Part shown: positions 3,888 through 43,847 of the stretch, piece after piece | Layout of the letters: the number at the start of each line of letters is the position of its first letter | Position numbering within the stretch: the first letter of the stretch is position 1 | Sequence record: OZ035727.1 | From: Vectrevirus T205P4 | Strand: one strand, 5' to 3' | Length of the DNA: 44,005 nt | Made by a program: the position numbers and the translations under genes | The notes under the pieces: generated by a model | The model's database searches: none | Told to the model about the DNA's origin: nothing | Seen by the model: the letters and a program-made list of their open reading frames with translations, nothing else

Positions 3888-3910
3888 ATTTACTGGACAC
3901 TATAGAAGAG
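3888..3910 (+). promoter_or_regulatory. Phage RNAP promoter P2 (ATTTACTGGACACTATAGAAGAG) driving the tailspike genes
   Basis: Near-perfect consensus copy 80 nt upstream of the tailspike 1 start. Confidence 0.8.
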
Positions 3911-3989
3911 GTAAGATAGCGCCGTTCTTTTGAGCGGCCTATTACTAGCCAATCTTCATAGGGAGGGTTGGAAAGTAATAGGAGATAGC

Positions 3990-5888
3990 ATGGCTAAATT
4001 AACCAAACCTAATACTGAAGGAATCTTGCATAAAGGACAATCTTTGTATGAGTACCTTGATGCGAGAGTTTTAACATCAAAGCCGTTTGGTGCTGTAGGT
4101 GACGCCACTACTGATGATACGGAGGTTATAGCTGCTTCATTAAACTCTCAGAAAGCTGTCACAATCTCAGACGGTGTATTCTCTAGCTCTGGTATTAATA
4201 GTAATTACTGTAACTTAGACGGTAGAGGTAGTGGGGTGCTAAGTCACCGTTCCAGTGCAGGTAACTACTTAGTATTTAACAATCCACGTACAGGTCGCTT
4301 AAGTAATATTACGGTAGAAAGTAATAAGGCGACTGATACAACTCAGGGACAGCAGGTATCTCTTGCTGGTGGAAGTGATGTTACTGTAAGTGACGTTAAC
4401 TTCTCAAACGTTAAAGGTACTGGTTTCAGTTTAATCGCATACCCTAATGATGCGCCACCTGATGGACTTATGATTAAAGGCATTCGAGGTAGCTATTCAG
4501 GCTATGCTACTAATAAGGCAGCCGGATGCGTACTTGCTGACTCCTCAGTTAACTCCCTCATAGATAACGTCATTGCTAAGAACTACCCTCAGTTCGGAGC
4601 AGTAGAGTTGAAAGGTACAGCCAGTTACAACATAGTCAGTAATGTTATAGGGGCAGATTGCCAGCATGTAACTTACAACGGCACCGAAGGGCCAATAGCT
4701 CCTTCTAATAACCTTATCAAGGGGGTGATGGCTAATAACCCTAAGTATGCAGCGGTTGTTGCAGGCAAAGGAAGTACGAACTTAATCTCAGACGTGCTTG
4801 TAGATTACTCAACTTCTGATGCTAGGCAGGCTCATGGTGTTACCGTAGAAGGGTCTGATAACGTCATAAATAATGTGCTTATGTCAGGATGTGATGGTAC
4901 TAACTCTTTAGGACAAGGGCAGACCGCTACAATTGCACGCTTTATAGGTACAGCTAATAACAACTATGCGTCTGTATTTCCTAGCTACAGTGCTACAGGT
5001 GTTATTACTTTCGAATCCGGCTCTACCCGTAACTTCGTAGAGGTAAAGCACCCTGGCAGGAGAAACGACCTTCTCAGTTCTGCTAGTACTATTGACGGTG
5101 CAGCTACTATTGACGGCACTAATAATAGTAACGTAGTACACGCACCTGCATTAGGGCAGTACATAGGTAGTATGTCAGGTAGGTTCGAATGGCGGATTAA
5201 GTCCATGTCACTCCCTTCAGGCGTTCTTACTTCTGCTGATAAGTACAGAATGCTTGGGGATGGTGCTGTATCATTAGCTGTAGGTGGGGGTACTTCTTCT
5301 CAAGTTCGCCTATTTACTTCTGATGGTACTTCTCGGACAGTGGCCCTCACCAACGGTAACGTGCGTCTTTCTACCAGTAGCACAGGCTATTTGCAGTTAG
5401 GTGCTGATGCAATGACCCCAGATAGTACTGGTACATACGCATTAGGTTCCGCCAGTCGAGCATGGTCTGGAGGTTTTACTCAAGCAGCATTCACTGTTAC
5501 ATCAGATGCTCGGTGTAAAACAGAACCTCTTACTATCTCAGATGCCTTACTGGATGCTTGGTCTGAAGTTGACTTTGTGCAGTTTCAGTATTTGGATCGT
5601 GTTGAGGAGAAGGGTGCAGACTCAGCTAGATGGCACTTTGGCATCATCGCTCAGCGAGCTAAGGAGGCTTTCGAACGCCACGGTATAGATGCACATCGCT
5701 ATGGCTTCTTGTGCTTCGACAGTTGGGATGATGTATACGAGGAAGATGCCAATGGCTCTCGTAAACTGATTACACCAGCAGGTTCCCGCTACGGTATTCG
5801 TTACGAGGAAGTGCTGATATTAGAGGCTGCGTTGATGCGGAGGACTATTAAGCGTATGCAGGAAGCACTAGCTTCCCTGCCTAAGTAA
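3990..5888 (+). CDS. Tailspike protein 1 (632 aa): beta-helix depolymerase with C-terminal intramolecular chaperone domain; K5-lyase/endosialidase-type architecture
   Basis: AGGAGA RBS before ATG at 3990 (MAKLTKPNTEG...); repetitive beta-helix-like middle; C-terminal SDARCK...RWHFGIIAQRAKEAFERHGID...YEEVLILEA resembles the autocleaving chaperone domain of endosialidase/K5 lyase tailspikes. Confidence 0.88.
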   Translation: MAKLTKPNTEGILHKGQSLYEYLDARVLTSKPFGAVGDATTDDTEVIAASLNSQKAVTISDGVFSSSGINSNYCNLDGRGSGVLSHRSSAGNYLVFNNPRTGRLSNITVESNKATDTTQGQQVSLAGGSDVTVSDVNFSNVKGTGFSLIAYPNDAPPDGLMIKGIRGSYSGYATNKAAGCVLADSSVNSLIDNVIAKNYPQFGAVELKGTASYNIVSNVIGADCQHVTYNGTEGPIAPSNNLIKGVMANNPKYAAVVAGKGSTNLISDVLVDYSTSDARQAHGVTVEGSDNVINNVLMSGCDGTNSLGQGQTATIARFIGTANNNYASVFPSYSATGVITFESGSTRNFVEVKHPGRRNDLLSSASTIDGAATIDGTNNSNVVHAPALGQYIGSMSGRFEWRIKSMSLPSGVLTSADKYRMLGDGAVSLAVGGGTSSQVRLFTSDGTSRTVALTNGNVRLSTSSTGYLQLGADAMTPDSTGTYALGSASRAWSGGFTQAAFTVTSDARCKTEPLTISDALLDAWSEVDFVQFQYLDRVEEKGADSARWHFGIIAQRAKEAFERHGIDAHRYGFLCFDSWDDVYEEDANGSRKLITPAGSRYGIRYEEVLILEAALMRRTIKRMQEALASLPK

Positions 5889-5895
5889 GCAACAG

Positions 5896-5918
5896 GCAGT
5901 GCGTAAGCACTGCTTTTC
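5896..5918 (+). terminator. Hairpin plus T-tract between the two tailspike genes
   Basis: GCAGTGC-GTAA-GCACTGC followed by TTTTCACGC. Confidence 0.5.
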
Positions 5919-5973
5919 ACGCAACTTTTCTTAAAGGTTATCATGGTGGTAGCCTTTCAGAAAAGGAGGTTAC

Positions 5974-7632
5974 ATGCTACAACGATTAAGTTCTTCACTA
6001 GTGAAGCACAAGAGCAAGCTAATAGGCGCTACCTATAGGCTGCTTGGTGATAAACTTTTAGAGCTAAATAGTGTATCAGATTTTGGTGCAATACCAAATC
6101 TTGAAACAGATAGTACTAATTCCATTCAAGCTGCAATTGATGCGACCCCGTCTGGTGGTACTCTAGGCTTCTATGGTGGGCCTTATAGATTTGGTACTGT
6201 TACAGTGGATAAACCAATTACACTAGTTGGAGATGCAGATTTGCAGTTTGAGTGCATTCGTATCAAGACAAGTAAGTTTCGTAGTTTCTTGACAGGAACA
6301 CTAACTGCTGCGAGATACGACAGTGCATGTCGTGCATTTCAAATCTTAGCCTATGAAGATGGGCAAGATTATGAGGACATCAAGGTACATGGTGCACGTT
6401 TCGAGGGTTTCTTCTATAACACAGACTTCCGAGGCCGCTCTTACGATGCGTCAGAAAGTGATCCTGCTAACAGAGTGGTTCGGGATACCTCTATTATGGG
6501 CTGTACTTCAGTTCAGCCTAAAGATGGTAAAGACAGAGGGCACTTTCAACACGTAGGTGTAACCAATGCCAAATGCATAGGTAACTCAACGTATGGCGGC
6601 AAGAATGCCACTTCTTATAACTTCATTAATGGTAATGGCTCTTTGGTGGTTATGGGTAACTATGACCATGACAATGAATATGGCTCATTAGAGATTGAGA
6701 ATAACAAGATAAGCTATGGTGTGGTTACTGGTAATATCTTCCATAAACAACTATGGATAGATGATACTAGCAACATTAATGTAATAGGTAACACCTGCAC
6801 AGATAGGATTTACATTACTGCACAATCTAACAACTCTGAGAACGTATCAGTAGTGGGAAACAATGTACCACGCATCTACGTCAGTAAGTTTGGTCAAAGC
6901 CCAACAGGTCGTCACCGTAACTTGACCATACGTGGTAATCATATCACTGGCAAGGATGTTCCTAACTGTATATTCTTAGACGATTCTGTGGATTCCGCTT
7001 CTATTGAGGGTAATGATTGTTATGGTGTATCTGGTGTTAGAGGCATAGCCATTACTCGTCATGCAGATGCTAACCATACAGTGCGTCATAATAACTTACA
7101 TGGCACTAACTTGCTCTTTAGTGGTTCGGGTGGCAAAGTTTATAGTTATGACAACTTTGATGTTGGAGTTGATGAATCACCTGTGACAGACAGAACTGAC
7201 GCAGTGCACATTGACAACCTTCTTCGTGTAAATGATGAGTACCTTGATTTGCCAGGAAAGTACCTATACAAATCTAAGTATACAAGAGACATTACACAAG
7301 GAGGCTCCACCACTATTGAGTTACCTATAACCACAAGTGGTACTTTGGCTTTTCGTGGTATTAGTTTATGGGTTCTTATCCGTAACACTTCTACTGGTAA
7401 CTTGTCTTCTTATCGTGTCGATGGAAGACATGCAGTAAGTGGTTCTTCTGTGACTGTTAGTTTTGGAGAGAAGTATGGGGTATTAGGGGTGAATACTGGT
7501 GATGTTACTATTAGTAATGATGCCTCTACGACTAATCTTATTCGTATCAAGGTAAGCAATGAGCATGTAAGTCAGACAATGCAGGTCACAGTTGTACCAG
7601 AGGTAACAAGCAGATTGGGAACTGAAGAGTAA
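5974..7632 (+). CDS. Tailspike protein 2 (552 aa), right-handed beta-helix (pectate-lyase-like) receptor-binding/depolymerase protein
   Basis: AAGGAGG RBS; repeated VxGN/NxxxG beta-helix rungs (VIGNTCTDRIYIT, VVGNNVPRIYVS, IRGNHITGKD); second spike gene directly after spike 1, as in K1-5/SP6-type phages. Confidence 0.85.
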   Translation: MLQRLSSSLVKHKSKLIGATYRLLGDKLLELNSVSDFGAIPNLETDSTNSIQAAIDATPSGGTLGFYGGPYRFGTVTVDKPITLVGDADLQFECIRIKTSKFRSFLTGTLTAARYDSACRAFQILAYEDGQDYEDIKVHGARFEGFFYNTDFRGRSYDASESDPANRVVRDTSIMGCTSVQPKDGKDRGHFQHVGVTNAKCIGNSTYGGKNATSYNFINGNGSLVVMGNYDHDNEYGSLEIENNKISYGVVTGNIFHKQLWIDDTSNINVIGNTCTDRIYITAQSNNSENVSVVGNNVPRIYVSKFGQSPTGRHRNLTIRGNHITGKDVPNCIFLDDSVDSASIEGNDCYGVSGVRGIAITRHADANHTVRHNNLHGTNLLFSGSGGKVYSYDNFDVGVDESPVTDRTDAVHIDNLLRVNDEYLDLPGKYLYKSKYTRDITQGGSTTIELPITTSGTLAFRGISLWVLIRNTSTGNLSSYRVDGRHAVSGSSVTVSFGEKYGVLGVNTGDVTISNDASTTNLIRIKVSNEHVSQTMQVTVVPEVTSRLGTEE

Positions 7633-7781
7633 TGCCATTAATCAAATCAGTTAAGCAAAGTGCTGTACGTCAGAACACAGAAGAACTCATTCAATCAGGA
7701 CGTGACCCTAAGCAAGCTTATGCGATTGCCAAGGATGTACAACGTCGTGCCTTGAAGAAACCTTCTGCATCTTCTGCGTAA
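7632..7781 (+). CDS. Hypothetical small protein, 49 aa
   Basis: TAATG stop/start overlap with tailspike 2; below track cutoff; no recognisable domain. Confidence 0.4.
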   Translation: MPLIKSVKQSAVRQNTEELIQSGRDPKQAYAIAKDVQRRALKKPSASSA

Positions 7782-7852
7782 GCAGGTTAATATCTTAGTA
7801 TAAACAAGGGCAGACCTAGGTTTGCTCTTAGTGTATTTACAATGGAGGTCTT

Positions 7853-7933
7853 ATGTATATACCTATGGAAGCAATAGTAGGTTGCCTATGCTTGTTGATA
7901 GGTTTCGTTATAGGCTTAATAGCAAAGCCTTAG
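7853..7933 (+). CDS. Hypothetical 26-aa hydrophobic micro-protein (MYIPMEAIVGCLCLLIGFVIGLIAKP)
   Basis: GGAGG RBS 5 nt upstream; a single predicted transmembrane helix; last ORF before the terminal non-coding region. Confidence 0.3.
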   Translation: MYIPMEAIVGCLCLLIGFVIGLIAKP

Positions 7934-7987
7934 TCCTGTACAAGGATTAACCAAAGTCAAAATTTTGATATGGTCGTGTGTGAGGTG

Positions 7988-8340
7988 TCTCGCCCTCGCC
8001 CTCGCCGGATTTCCCCCATACGGGTCCGCGCTGCGGTTGGCTTGGGAATTGGGCTGGGCTGGTCCGTCTTCAACCTGCTGCCGCAGGAAGCTCGACGGGT
8101 GGGCGAGGGCTTGCCTTGTACTCGCTTAGTGGTACACAAGGAGAACGCCTAGGAAGCGCTAGGGCACGCCTTAGTATTGGACAAGGTGATTGCCTTAGTT
8201 CAACCGCTTAGGGCTTACACGGGCCGTTTTAGGGCCATTCCTGAGCGTTTGACAGGGTGTGAGGGCGTGGGCTATCTGTTCGTTTCGCTACGCTTCACTC
8301 ACTGCTCCTCACTTCGTTCGTCGCTGCGGTAGCCTGATGT
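7988..8340. other. GC-rich non-coding block, candidate genome terminus / direct terminal repeat
   Basis: Clearly more GC-rich than the rest of the window by eye; begins TCTCGCCCTCGCCCTCGCC and contains TTTCCCCCATACGGG, resembling the T7 left-end motif TTCCCCCATAGGGGG; no credible ORF. Confidence 0.45.
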
Positions 8341-8700
8341 GTACCTTAGGTTATTACTTGATGGATAGCTTAGGTTATAGCTTAGTGGCCTACCTTAGTT
8401 ATAACCTTAGTGCATAGCTTAGTATCAGCTTAGTAGTGTACCTTAGTAAGTCTTAGTGTCTTCTCTTAGTGATTGCACATGCAAGCATGTAAGATGCCAT
8501 TAGGTCGCGGTCGGTAGACCGCTAAAGAAGGAGAATAGTAATAAGATGCAGTAGGAGGAACACCAGAAACCTAGCCAACCTAGCCTATCCTAGCTCTGTA
8601 TCTATTGCTTTTCCTTAGTCTCACACGTTAGACAACCTAGGTTTGTCTTAGTAGTTGCGACATGTATCACATAAATAATCTATCTTAGTGCGATTTAGTG
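8340..8700. repeat. Array of short CTTAGT/CTTAGG motifs (more than 15 copies) in the terminal non-coding region
   Basis: Motif recurs at irregular 10-25 nt spacing (e.g. agcttaggttatagcttagtggcctaccttagttataaccttagtg...); analogous to the CCTAAAG repeats near the T7 left end. Confidence 0.6.
8618..8633. repeat. Degenerate copy of the 16-bp palindrome (GTCTCACACGTTAGAC, 1 mismatch)
   Basis: One substitution relative to the GTCTCACACGTGAGAC family. Confidence 0.4.
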
Positions 8701-8729
8701 TTGACATAGGCAGTTAACAGGTATACATT
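8701..8729 (+). promoter_or_regulatory. Host sigma70-type early promoter (TTGACA-N17-TACATT)
   Basis: Perfect -35 hexamer, 17-bp spacer, 4/6 -10; position equivalent to T7 A1-A3 early promoters. Confidence 0.6.
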
Positions 8730-8881
8730 AGCAATCAGTCGGGAGCGACATTAAATACTCAGGGTGAATGATAGAGAGCGTCCTTAACTATCCGGCCTAG
8801 CTACTGAAGCCGTTAAACAATGTTAGATAGTGGAAGATGGCGCAAGCATAACCTGCCACGATAAACCAAGGTTAGCGCAAT

Positions 8882-8894
8882 GCTCTTTAACAAT
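8882..8894 (+). promoter_or_regulatory. GCTCTTTAACAAT motif, copy 1 (putative RNase III processing site core)
   Basis: Same 13-mer as I recall at the T7 R0.3 RNase III site (ACGCTCTTTAACAATCTGG); lies just upstream of an early gene. Confidence 0.4.
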
Positions 8895-8952
8895 TTGCTT
8901 AGTGTAACCTATGTATGCCGTGGTTAATTACTTATTGAATGAGGAATTAGCT

Positions 8953-42600: not shown

Positions 42601-42885
42601 TTTAGTCTAGGTGGAGATTTCTTAGGTGGCCTAGGTGTTCTACCTTCTGAGTTAGTACAATCCCGTTATGAGGCTGGCTTTCAGACTAAGGGTTTGATAG
42701 ACCAAATACCACTAGTAGGTGTTGGTCAAGATGCATATCGTTTAGCAGATTCTATAACTAAATATGCAGAGGGTGATACAGAAGGTGTAGATGTGGCACG
42801 TAGGGCTTTACGCTTAGTGCCTCTAACTAATGTAATAGGAATCCAGAACGCATTGCGTTATGGCTTAGATGAACTGGAGGATTGA
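39700..42885 (+). CDS. Large internal virion (ejection/core) protein, 1061 aa
   Basis: GGAGGA RBS; size and position of the largest T7-group core protein. Confidence 0.8.
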   Translation: MEQDIKTNWAGYVQSTPEPFSIEAAPVSAPTIRQRNELQEQVLEAKADADILGAVGAAFQNEWLAFGGKRWYDRATADFTPQPDFEIQPEQREALRFKYGTDMMQTITEGVRSEDELNFRIQNADEDLERNKRIAQAGWVGSVATIGAAVLDPVGWVASIPTGGAAKVGLVGRAVRGAIAAGVSNAAIESILVQGDMTRDLDDIMVALGSGMAMGGVIGAVARGRAAKLSEQGDDRAANVVRSADAGDRYVRAVADDSIGAMRVKGAEVLTEGAFDISSKGEDLLKTLQREGNAIDMTPRRWAGTLSALGTVVHSSKDASIRGLGARLFESPQGLGMQKASASLMQNTNLNRLKSADMNRFNDGFDLWLKENNINPVAGHTNSHYVQQYNEKVWEAVRIGMDESTPKSIRMAAEGQQAMYREALALRQRSGEAGFEKVKADNKYMPDIFDSMKARRQFDMHDKEDIIELFSRAYQNGARKIPKEAADEIARAQVNRVADATLTGKLSFEKAMSGQTKAEYEAIMRKAGFSDEEIEKMIEALDNKETRDNISNRAKMSLGLDVTQEYNGIRMRDFMNTNVEELTDNYMKEAAGGAALARQGFSTYQAALNAIDLVERNARNAAKDSKASLALDEEIRQMREGLRLIMGKSIDADPQAISTKMMRRGRDITGVLRLGQMGFAQLGELANFMGEFGIAATTMALGKQFRFTSKALRNGDGFFRDKNLAEVERMVGYIGEDNWLTTKGARPDEFGDVTTVRGMMAHFDQSMNSIRRAQTNLSLFRMAQGSLERMTNRQIALSFIDHLEGKKIIPQKKLEELGLTQEFMTNLQKHYDANSKGSGLLGFDTMPYAMGETLANAIRRKSGLIIQRNFIGDEGIWMNKALGKTFAQLKSFSLVSGEKQFGRGIRHDKIGLAKKTAFGFALGSMVYAAKAYVNSIGREDQDEYLEEKLSPKGLAFGAMGMMSTTAVFSLGGDFLGGLGVLPSELVQSRYEAGFQTKGLIDQIPLVGVGQDAYRLADSITKYAEGDTEGVDVARRALRLVPLTNVIGIQNALRYGLDELED

Positions 42886-43847
42886 TGAGTTATACTTTCA
42901 CAGAACATATAGCCAACGGTACGCAAGTAACCTATCCCTTTAGATTTGCTGGCAGGGATAAAGGCTATCTTCGTGCCTCAGATGTGATAGTGGAATCTCT
43001 TCAAGGTAACACTTGGATTGAGGTTACATCTGGCTGGCAATTAACTGGTACGCATCAAATCACTTTTGATGTAGCACCTGTTGCAGGTTTGAAGTTCCGT
43101 ATTCGAAGGGAAGTACAAAAGGAATATCCATACGCTGAGTTTGACCGTGGTGTTACCTTGGATATGAAGTCTTTAAATGGCTCTTTCATTCATATACTGG
43201 AGATTACACAGGAGTTACTTGATGGGTTTTATCCAGAAGGATACTTCATTAAACAGAATGTAAGCTGGGGCGGCAATAAGATTACTGATTTGGCTGATGG
43301 CACAAATCCGGGAGATGCAGTAAATAAGGGGCAGCTTGATGCCATCGACAAGAAGCATACAGATTGGAACGCCAAACAGGACATTGAGATTGCTGGCCTT
43401 AAGGCTGGTATGACTTCTGGTATTGCGCACAGAACTGTTCCTTGGTACACGATAGCCCAAGGTGGTGAGATTTCCGTAAAACCACCTTATGAATTTCAAG
43501 ATGCACTAGTTTTCCTTAATGGGGTATTGCAGCACCAAATTGTAGGCGCATACTCTATAAGCAACAACACTATCACTTTCGCAGAGCCGCTTGTGGCTGG
43601 TACAGAGGTGTATGTGTTGATTGGTAGTCGTGTGGCTACATCTGAACCTAATATTCAGTTAGAGTTGAACTTTGACTTAGTAGAAGGCCAACAAGTAGTA
43701 CAGATTGGCTCTGCATTTAAGTACATTGAGGTCTACCTTGATGGATTATTACAACCTAAACTTGCTTATCAGGTAGACGGTGACATTGTTACTTTCTCAG
43801 AGGGAGTGCCAGAATGCCGGATGACTGCTAAGATTATCACAGAATAA
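42885..43847 (+). CDS. Tail fiber adaptor protein (homolog of the T7 gp17 N-terminal tail-attachment domain), about 320 aa
   Basis: N-terminal region parallels the T7 gp17 tail-binding domain in pattern; lacks a receptor-binding domain, consistent with an adaptor that carries the two tailspikes. Confidence 0.85.
   Translation: MSYTFTEHIANGTQVTYPFRFAGRDKGYLRASDVIVESLQGNTWIEVTSGWQLTGTHQITFDVAPVAGLKFRIRREVQKEYPYAEFDRGVTLDMKSLNGSFIHILEITQELLDGFYPEGYFIKQNVSWGGNKITDLADGTNPGDAVNKGQLDAIDKKHTDWNAKQDIEIAGLKAGMTSGIAHRTVPWYTIAQGGEISVKPPYEFQDALVFLNGVLQHQIVGAYSISNNTITFAEPLVAGTEVYVLIGSRVATSEPNIQLELNFDLVEGQQVVQIGSAFKYIEVYLDGLLQPKLAYQVDGDIVTFSEGVPECRMTAKIITE

Follow-up and report, generated by a model that had tools for sequence, protein, structure and literature searches.

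Two tailspike genes stand in tandem at positions 3990-7632 of the genome of Vectrevirus T205P4 (phage T205_P4, sequence record OZ035727.1), and the question raised by this locus is which two host polysaccharides they recognise and how both proteins are carried by a single tail. The whole stretch of 44,005 bp that was analysed, referred to here as the window, represents the entire genome, circularly permuted, of a podophage resembling K1-5 (Autographiviridae, Molineuxvirinae, Vectrevirus). An earlier annotation made from the sequence alone (the first-pass annotation) had deduced from the locus a dual specificity for two polysaccharides, "capsule and/or O-antigen". Our results indicate that the locus is the host-recognition module of a K1-5-like coliphage, with a new combination of spikes in the well-known K1-5/SP6 arrangement. 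We consider it likely that this module consists of two spikes on one adaptor, the first being the K5 lyase KflA, directed to K5, and the second (spike 2) being most likely directed to K7, with the body of spike 2 constituting an exchangeable cassette. The elements involved are the following (aa, amino acids; nt, nucleotides):

3990..5888, + strand: spike 1, KflA, 632 aa, with a slot-1 docking peptide (MAKLTK...), a beta-helix lyase body, a triple-beta-helix stalk and a chaperone domain
5502..5507, + strand: cleavage site of spike 1, between Ser505 and Asp506
5505..5885, + strand: C-terminal chaperone domain of spike 1, aa 506-632
5974..7632, + strand: spike 2, 552 aa, candidate K7-capsule depolymerase, made up of the docking head, a beta-helix body (aa ~32-397), a low-confidence linker (398-431) and a C-terminal beta-sandwich (432-552)
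5974..6066, + strand: slot-2 docking head of spike 2, aa 1-31
42885..43847, + strand: adaptor, gp37 homologue, 320 aa, with a T7-type tail-attachment domain; 316/319 identical to K1-5 gp37 (YP_654138)

The assignment of the second specificity comes from the plaque-assay matrix in the supplements of Gaborieau et al. (bioRxiv 10.1101/2023.11.22.567924), which holds full columns for T205_P4 and T205_P5 over 401 scored strains. Both are Vectrevirus "K15" phages isolated on strain T205, which is B2, O2:H14 with an ABC capsule typed as K7 (same reference). The strains lysed by these two phages and by two sister phages were:

T205_P4 (K5 lyase and spike 2): K7 5/6, K5 15/19, other 3/376 (all K1, with scores of 1-2)
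T205_P5 (K5 lyase and spike 2): K7 4/6, K5 14/19, other 0/376
PDP21_P6 (K5 lyase, without spike 2): K7 0/6, K5 15/19
DIJ06_P1 (K5 lyase, without spike 2): K7 1/6 (score 1), K5 strains lysed (not tallied)

Fisher tests of T205_P4 against other strains yielded p=5e-9 (K7) and p=6e-21 (K5). Its scores on the K7 strains were 5 on IAI72, 3 on T205, 2 on IAI54, 1 on IAI33 and ROAR291, and 0 on ECOR-57 (bioRxiv 10.1101/2023.11.22.567924). The K5 lyases of PDP21_P6 and DIJ06_P1 are 96-98% identical at the DNA level to that of the window. As these sister phages differ in their second spike and fail to lyse K7 strains, spike 2 becomes a candidate K7-capsule depolymerase, its substrate being suggested by correlation. 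Most simply, K5 tropism would come from KflA and K7 tropism from spike 2. The dual specificity proposed in the first-pass annotation agrees with these data, since T205_P4 and T205_P5 lyse K5 and K7 strains and almost nothing else, although the agreement is correlational; the proposed "and/or O-antigen" can be narrowed, the second target being most likely the K7 capsule. Spike 2 would then cleave most likely the K7 group-2 capsule, and the virion would strip and infect both K5- and K7-encapsulated E. coli.

Several observations weigh against this interpretation. The connection with K7 is a correlation based on six K7 strains; one of them, ECOR-57, is not lysed, and two have a score of just 1, which stands for clearing at the highest titre and need not reflect productive infection. 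The K types in the host-range study were moreover inferred from genomes, not by serology. The same spike body is also found in Gamaleyavirus St11Ph5, whose isolation host is O5ab, its K type being unknown. As to the protein itself, the match of PF12708 to spike 2 reaches 23 bits, below the cut-off of 27 bits. The search of both spikes against characterised depolymerases that the first-pass annotation had advised identified spike 1 as KflA and returned no characterised homologue of spike 2, to which no enzyme class (hydrolase or lyase) can be assigned. If the ManNAcA of the K7 repeat is 3-linked instead of 4-linked, a hydrolase would be expected. Finally, four K5-typed strains (T147, IAI68, IAI78 and NILS19) are lysed by neither T205_P4 nor T205_P5, so that capsule type is insufficient for infection; either imperfect genomic K typing, an unexpressed capsule or post-adsorption barriers could account for them. 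T147 is itself the isolation host of other Vectreviruses.

The alternatives differ in how far they accommodate these data. That the K5 lyase alone lyses both K5 and K7 strains through relaxed substrate specificity was raised only because both capsules, K7 and K5, belong to the acidic group-2 type, and no result of this analysis points to it; it is very improbable, given that PDP21_P6 and DIJ06_P1, with almost the same lyase, lyse K5 strains but essentially no K7 strains. More can be said for the view that spike 2 recognises an O-antigen (e.g. O2 or O5), as SP6 and P22-type spikes do, the link to K7 being a by-product of the prevalence of O2 among K7 strains. O2 indeed accounts for four of the six K7 strains, the only off-target lysis by T205_P4 occurred on O2:K1 or O1:K1 strains (IAI51, NILS54 and AL505), the host of St11Ph5 is O5ab, and the relatives of spike 2 at 46% identity are P22-type prophage tailspikes. 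However, only 2 of the 23 O2 strains that are neither K5 nor K7 were lysed, both with a score of 1, whereas the K7 strains IAI33 (O1) and ROAR291 (O10) were lysed, if weakly. The lipopolysaccharide (LPS) ladder is also unchanged in St11Ph5-resistant mutants of strain UP11 (PMC6393563), and phiv142-3-type relatives have been found in prophages of several O serogroups (PMC10408124). We therefore regard recognition of an O-antigen as unlikely.

It is somewhat less probable still that spike 2 has no role of its own beyond structure or binding, as with the truncated partner gene in K1E, and that K7 tropism derives from other differences, such as counter-defence genes or another adsorption step. Such a role would be compatible with the subthreshold Pfam match and with the lack of assignable catalytic residues in spike 2, and the host ranges were compared between whole phages, not isogenic constructs. 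Yet the gene is full length and under strong purifying selection, also in lineages that combine it with three different first spikes, and a stripe of acidic and polar residues in its product is strongly conserved. Two public accessions, ERR3857031 and ERR3857069, combine a frameshifted K5 lyase with an intact spike 2, which suggests dependence on the latter, and within a genus the main variable loci in the Guelin collection are the tail spike and fibre genes (bioRxiv 10.1101/2023.11.22.567924). A depolymerase directed to K7 continues to be the preferred interpretation of spike 2.

Spike 1, judged by sequence comparison, is the K5 lyase KflA with an intramolecular chaperone domain predicted to be autocleaving. 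It is identical at 625 of 632 positions, over the same length, to KflA of coliphage K5A (CAA71133), the seven substitutions being at positions 8, 36, 90, 310, 378, 452 and 629, and its gene differs from K1-5 gp46 at 38 of 1,899 nt; phrog_14895 also matches it over its full length. The K5-lyase-type enzyme that the first-pass annotation had deemed compatible with a length of 632 aa is therefore the one encoded. The same annotation had noticed a C-terminal chaperone-like domain with an SDARCK motif resembling the conserved cleavage site, and the profile search found this domain: PF13884 (Peptidase_S74 chaperone) matches residues 505-565 with 54.4 bits (cut-off 22; E=1.5e-14), as do the solved chaperone domains 3gud (E=1.4e-22), 3gw6 and 4uw8 (phi29 gp12, endosialidase NF, T5 pb1). 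PDB entry 2x3h, "K5 lyase", covers residues 1-505 with 1073 bits, so that Ser505 is both the final residue of the crystallised mature enzyme and position 1 of the PF13884 profile, within the motif FTVTS-DARCK at nt 5490-5519. The maturation site is thus the same as in K5A KflA, from which spike 1 shows no functionally notable difference. Autoproteolytic processing has been reported for the near-identical K1-5 ORF46, for which a review gives a mass of 67 kDa and a mature form of 52 kDa (PMC5380687, Table 1). Spike 1 would fold with the aid of its C-terminal intramolecular chaperone, which would then cleave itself off after Ser505, and the mature spike would degrade the K5 (heparosan) capsule by beta-elimination. 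An open reading frame (ORF) of 652 aa initiated by TTG at 3930 was rejected as the start of spike 1, since the ATG at 3990 has a good ribosome-binding site (RBS) and gives 632 aa. In the Logan accessions ERR3857031 and ERR3857069 (L004/L005, 1016-2915), a single extra G at nt 236 of the Vectrevirus K5 lyase gene truncates it at codon 80, with spike 2 intact; these may represent a lineage living on spike 2 alone, or else an assembly error.

Spike 2 is a distinct right-handed parallel beta-helix tailspike according to its predicted structure. In the AlphaFold2 model, built with 26 homologues and with a mean pLDDT (predicted local distance difference test) of 84, an N-terminal helix is followed by a right-handed beta-helix, a low-confidence linker and a C-terminal beta-sandwich, in accordance with the separate 552-aa beta-helix protein that had first been described. 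A search of solved structures, both with the single sequence and with a 26-sequence profile, matched only the generic N-terminal cap motif. The ratio of non-synonymous to synonymous substitution rates (dN/dS) of 0.03-0.12, and of 0.03-0.08 among Vectrevirus copies, indicates strong purifying selection. Divergence from St11Ph5 is uneven along the protein, the beta-helix being 95% identical (dN/dS 0.07) and the C-terminal beta-sandwich 79% identical (dN/dS 0.23), which suggests relaxed or diversifying pressure on the distal domain. Residues Y236, E240, E242, D263 and D264, among others, are invariant across relatives at only 46-50% identity; E240/E242 and D263/D264 lie about one helix rung apart. 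In INPHARED, T205_P5 (OZ035792.1) is the only Vectrevirus with spike 2, the next best match being the C-terminal part of St11Ph5 gp66. Among 5,426 complete E. coli genomes, BLASTN with the spike 2 body found only patches of 160-260 nt at 67-74% identity in prophage tailspikes, so that its specificity could not be inferred from the serotypes of lysogens.

The first-pass annotation had held that neither spike has a T7-like tail-attachment domain, this being encoded separately in an adaptor arrangement of the K1-5/K5/SP6 type. Both points proved correct, and the arrangement, which agrees in gene order and in the 99% identity of the adaptor to K1-5 gp37, is well known rather than new. In a Pfam profile search the tail-attachment domain PF03906 matched residues 4-154 of the adaptor (27.2 bits, cut-off 25.2) and matched neither spike 1 nor spike 2, and the "tail adaptor protein" of Klebsiella phage Kp7 (PDB 7y22_e) matches the adaptor over its full length (E=2e-81). 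Three unrelated first-slot spikes, namely the K5 lyase, a 474-aa beta-propeller protein and a 583-aa beta-helix protein, begin with MAKLT(K/R), and four different second-slot proteins begin with M(L/I)QRL. In its initial ~35 residues (MLQRLSSSLVKHKSKLIGATYRLLGDKLLELNSVSDFGA), spike 2 is similar to the LL11 second spike, the K1-5 endosialidase and the second-slot ORF of phage K5, each at its N-terminus, the bodies being unrelated. Short conserved N-terminal peptides bind such spikes to the adaptor (Leiman et al. 2007, as far as it is related in PMC5380687). From these similarities we infer that the adaptor would sit on the tail through its T7-type N-terminal domain and would offer two docking sites, into which two different trimeric tailspikes would plug by means of slot-specific peptides, MAKLTK... 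for the first gene and MLQRLSSSLVKxKSK... for the second. Phage Kp7 (PDB 7y22, 7y5s) offers a structural parallel, as its adaptor is homologous over the full length and its fibre 7y5s opens with the head motif of spike 2 (TRLTSSLVRWKSKL...), although its host belongs to another genus and its spike bodies are different. In PDB 9vvr, on the other hand, a K5-lyase body is fused to the T7 tail domain in one polypeptide, and in the T7-type spikes P0020 and P0032 a spike-2-like body (~50% identity) is fused to a PF03906 domain, with a YadA-like stalk in addition in P0020. These fused spikes therefore show what the split adaptor arrangement replaces, the tail domain of the window being a separate gene.

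The borders of the second-spike slot and the other signals of the operon are as follows:

3890..3908, + strand: SP6/K1-5-type phage RNA-polymerase promoter TTACTGGACACTATAGAAG, 5' of spike 1, matching the promoter annotated 5' of the K5 lyase gene in Y10025.2
5889..5973, + strand: intergenic region of 85 nt with two hairpins and the spike 2 RBS, the 5' flank of the slot
7632..7781, + strand: ORF of 49 aa, homologue of K1-5 gp48 and SP6 gp51 (phrog_2423), whose start overlaps the spike 2 stop (TAATG), the 3' flank of the slot
7806..7829, + strand: terminator-like hairpin ending the spike operon, found by a consensus scan, at the downstream limit of the homology with St11Ph5

The intergenic RNA folds with -35.1 kcal/mol (z=-6.2), its first hairpin being terminator-like (GGCAGTGC-GTAA-GCACTGCTTTT), and the 85-nt region and RBS are near-identical in the window, K1-5 and K5, while the genes downstream differ; in phage K5 the second slot holds yet another gene, an ORF annotated as "hypothetical protein". 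The 49-aa ORF, which is under purifying selection (dN/dS 0.13-0.19), occurs at 8488-8637 of the K1-5 sequence (L001) and at 7608-7757 of that of St11Ph5 (L002). It is present in 115 phage records, and the 60 that were listed are all SP6-like genomes of ~38-47 kb except, at 72 kb, St11Ph5 with its twin ShWW44. The stretch shared with St11Ph5, at ~90% DNA identity, runs from ~nt 6066 (codon ~31, SVSDFGA) to ~7835 and covers the 49-aa ORF and the terminator-like hairpin. In G7C, the type Gamaleyavirus, the 49-aa ORF is absent and the corresponding gap has only 47 nt. On this comparison, the spike 2 body and the 49-aa gene look like a cassette transferred between phage families, presumably from an SP6-like phage to St11Ph5, which fits the general picture of tailspike exchange (PMC10408124). 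The spike 2 body would be the exchangeable part, bounded 5' by the conserved intergenic region and head peptide and 3' by the 49-aa gene; the latter could encode a spike-assembly factor or could simply be a homology arm for recombination. In public assemblies, spike 2 is paired in Vectrevirus genomes with all three first-slot alleles, and the two slots therefore reassort independently.

Some further features of this region were observed in relatives. Conservation of the 49-aa ORF extends over SP6-like phages of Escherichia, Salmonella, Klebsiella, Proteus and Vibrio. The slot-1 partners of spike 2 include the 474-aa protein, with a 5-bladed beta-propeller receptor-binding domain (PF21311; L006, 1492-2916), and the 583-aa beta-helix protein (L013, 1164-2915), both beginning with MAKLTR. 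In some relatives (L010, 4835-5299; LL11, L015, 5175-5636) an HNH/NUMOD4 homing-endonuclease gene lies directly 3' of the 49-aa ORF, and there is none after 7781 in the window; a homing endonuclease beside the spike cassette could promote its exchange.

St11Ph5, an N4-like Gamaleyavirus with a branched adhesin, belongs to a different family, but its gp66 has the same body followed by the 49-aa ORF with the same overlapping stop and start. There the body is fused to an N-terminal anchor of ~400 aa that joins it to the N4-type virion and also bears a second spike, whereas in the window it has the 31-aa docking head only. A stronger proposal, about as likely to be right as wrong, is that spike 2 would be the first depolymerase of the E. 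coli K7 (K56) capsule to be defined by sequence and that its body travels between SP6-like and N4-like phages together with the 49-aa gene. If this were true, the "particularly phage-resistant" uropathogenic E. coli host of St11Ph5 would have a K7-type capsule, and this, not the O5 antigen, would be the receptor. Mutants of UP11 resistant to St11Ph5 kept their LPS profile unchanged, which puzzled the authors (PMC6393563), and a K7-type capsular receptor is predicted to explain it.

With respect to the genome as a whole, a 24.5-kb stretch of the window has 95-96% identity to K1-5 and its relatives, the window is almost identical to T205_P5, and 12 SP6/K1-5-type promoters were found in the window, on the + strand only, against 0.02 expected by chance. 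The gene order endolysin, holin, spanin, spike 1 and spike 2 is that of K1-5, with the spike locus 3' of the terminase and lysis genes and the tandem spike genes placed near the right genome end. Positions 7780-8920, which separate the spike operon from the early genes, are non-coding and contain 18 of the 33 CTTAGT motifs of the window, as well as a block (7960-8340) with 58% GC versus 45% overall. The physical genome ends, with the terminal repeat, probably lie here, in confirmation of a permuted assembly.

The system that most resembles the window is that of K1-5 (gp46, K5 lyase; gp47, endosialidase; gp37, adaptor), a member of the same genus whose backbone is 95% identical. The two phages share gene order, promoter, intergenic region, 49-aa downstream gene, adaptor (99%) and first spike, and in both of them two spikes on one adaptor would provide two capsule specificities. 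They differ in the second spike, which in K1-5 is an 811-aa K1 endosialidase and in the window an unrelated 552-aa beta-helix protein with only the first ~35 residues, the docking head, in common; the second specificity is K1 in K1-5 and appears to be K7 in the window. The adaptor arrangement is textbook knowledge for K1-5 and SP6, and spike 1 is a structurally solved enzyme. What is new is the particular pair of spikes, the probable K7 specificity of a previously unannotated gene, and the mapping of cassette borders that recur in an N4-like phage.

The range of pathogenic E. coli that a phage can kill is set by capsule-specific spikes, and purified depolymerases are being explored as anti-virulence agents. 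The K5 and K1 enzymes are well characterised, whereas no gene assigned to K7 was found in the searchable literature; K7 is found in sequence type 73 (ST73) O2:H1 urinary isolates of the Picard collection (bioRxiv 10.1101/2023.11.22.567924). A 552-aa gene linked to K7 would be useful for typing, for the design of phage cocktails and for engineered spike swaps; for the last of these the cassette borders, i.e. the head peptide and the 49-aa gene, provide concrete junctions. Moreover, the locus documents an exchange between two phage families that have no common virion architecture.

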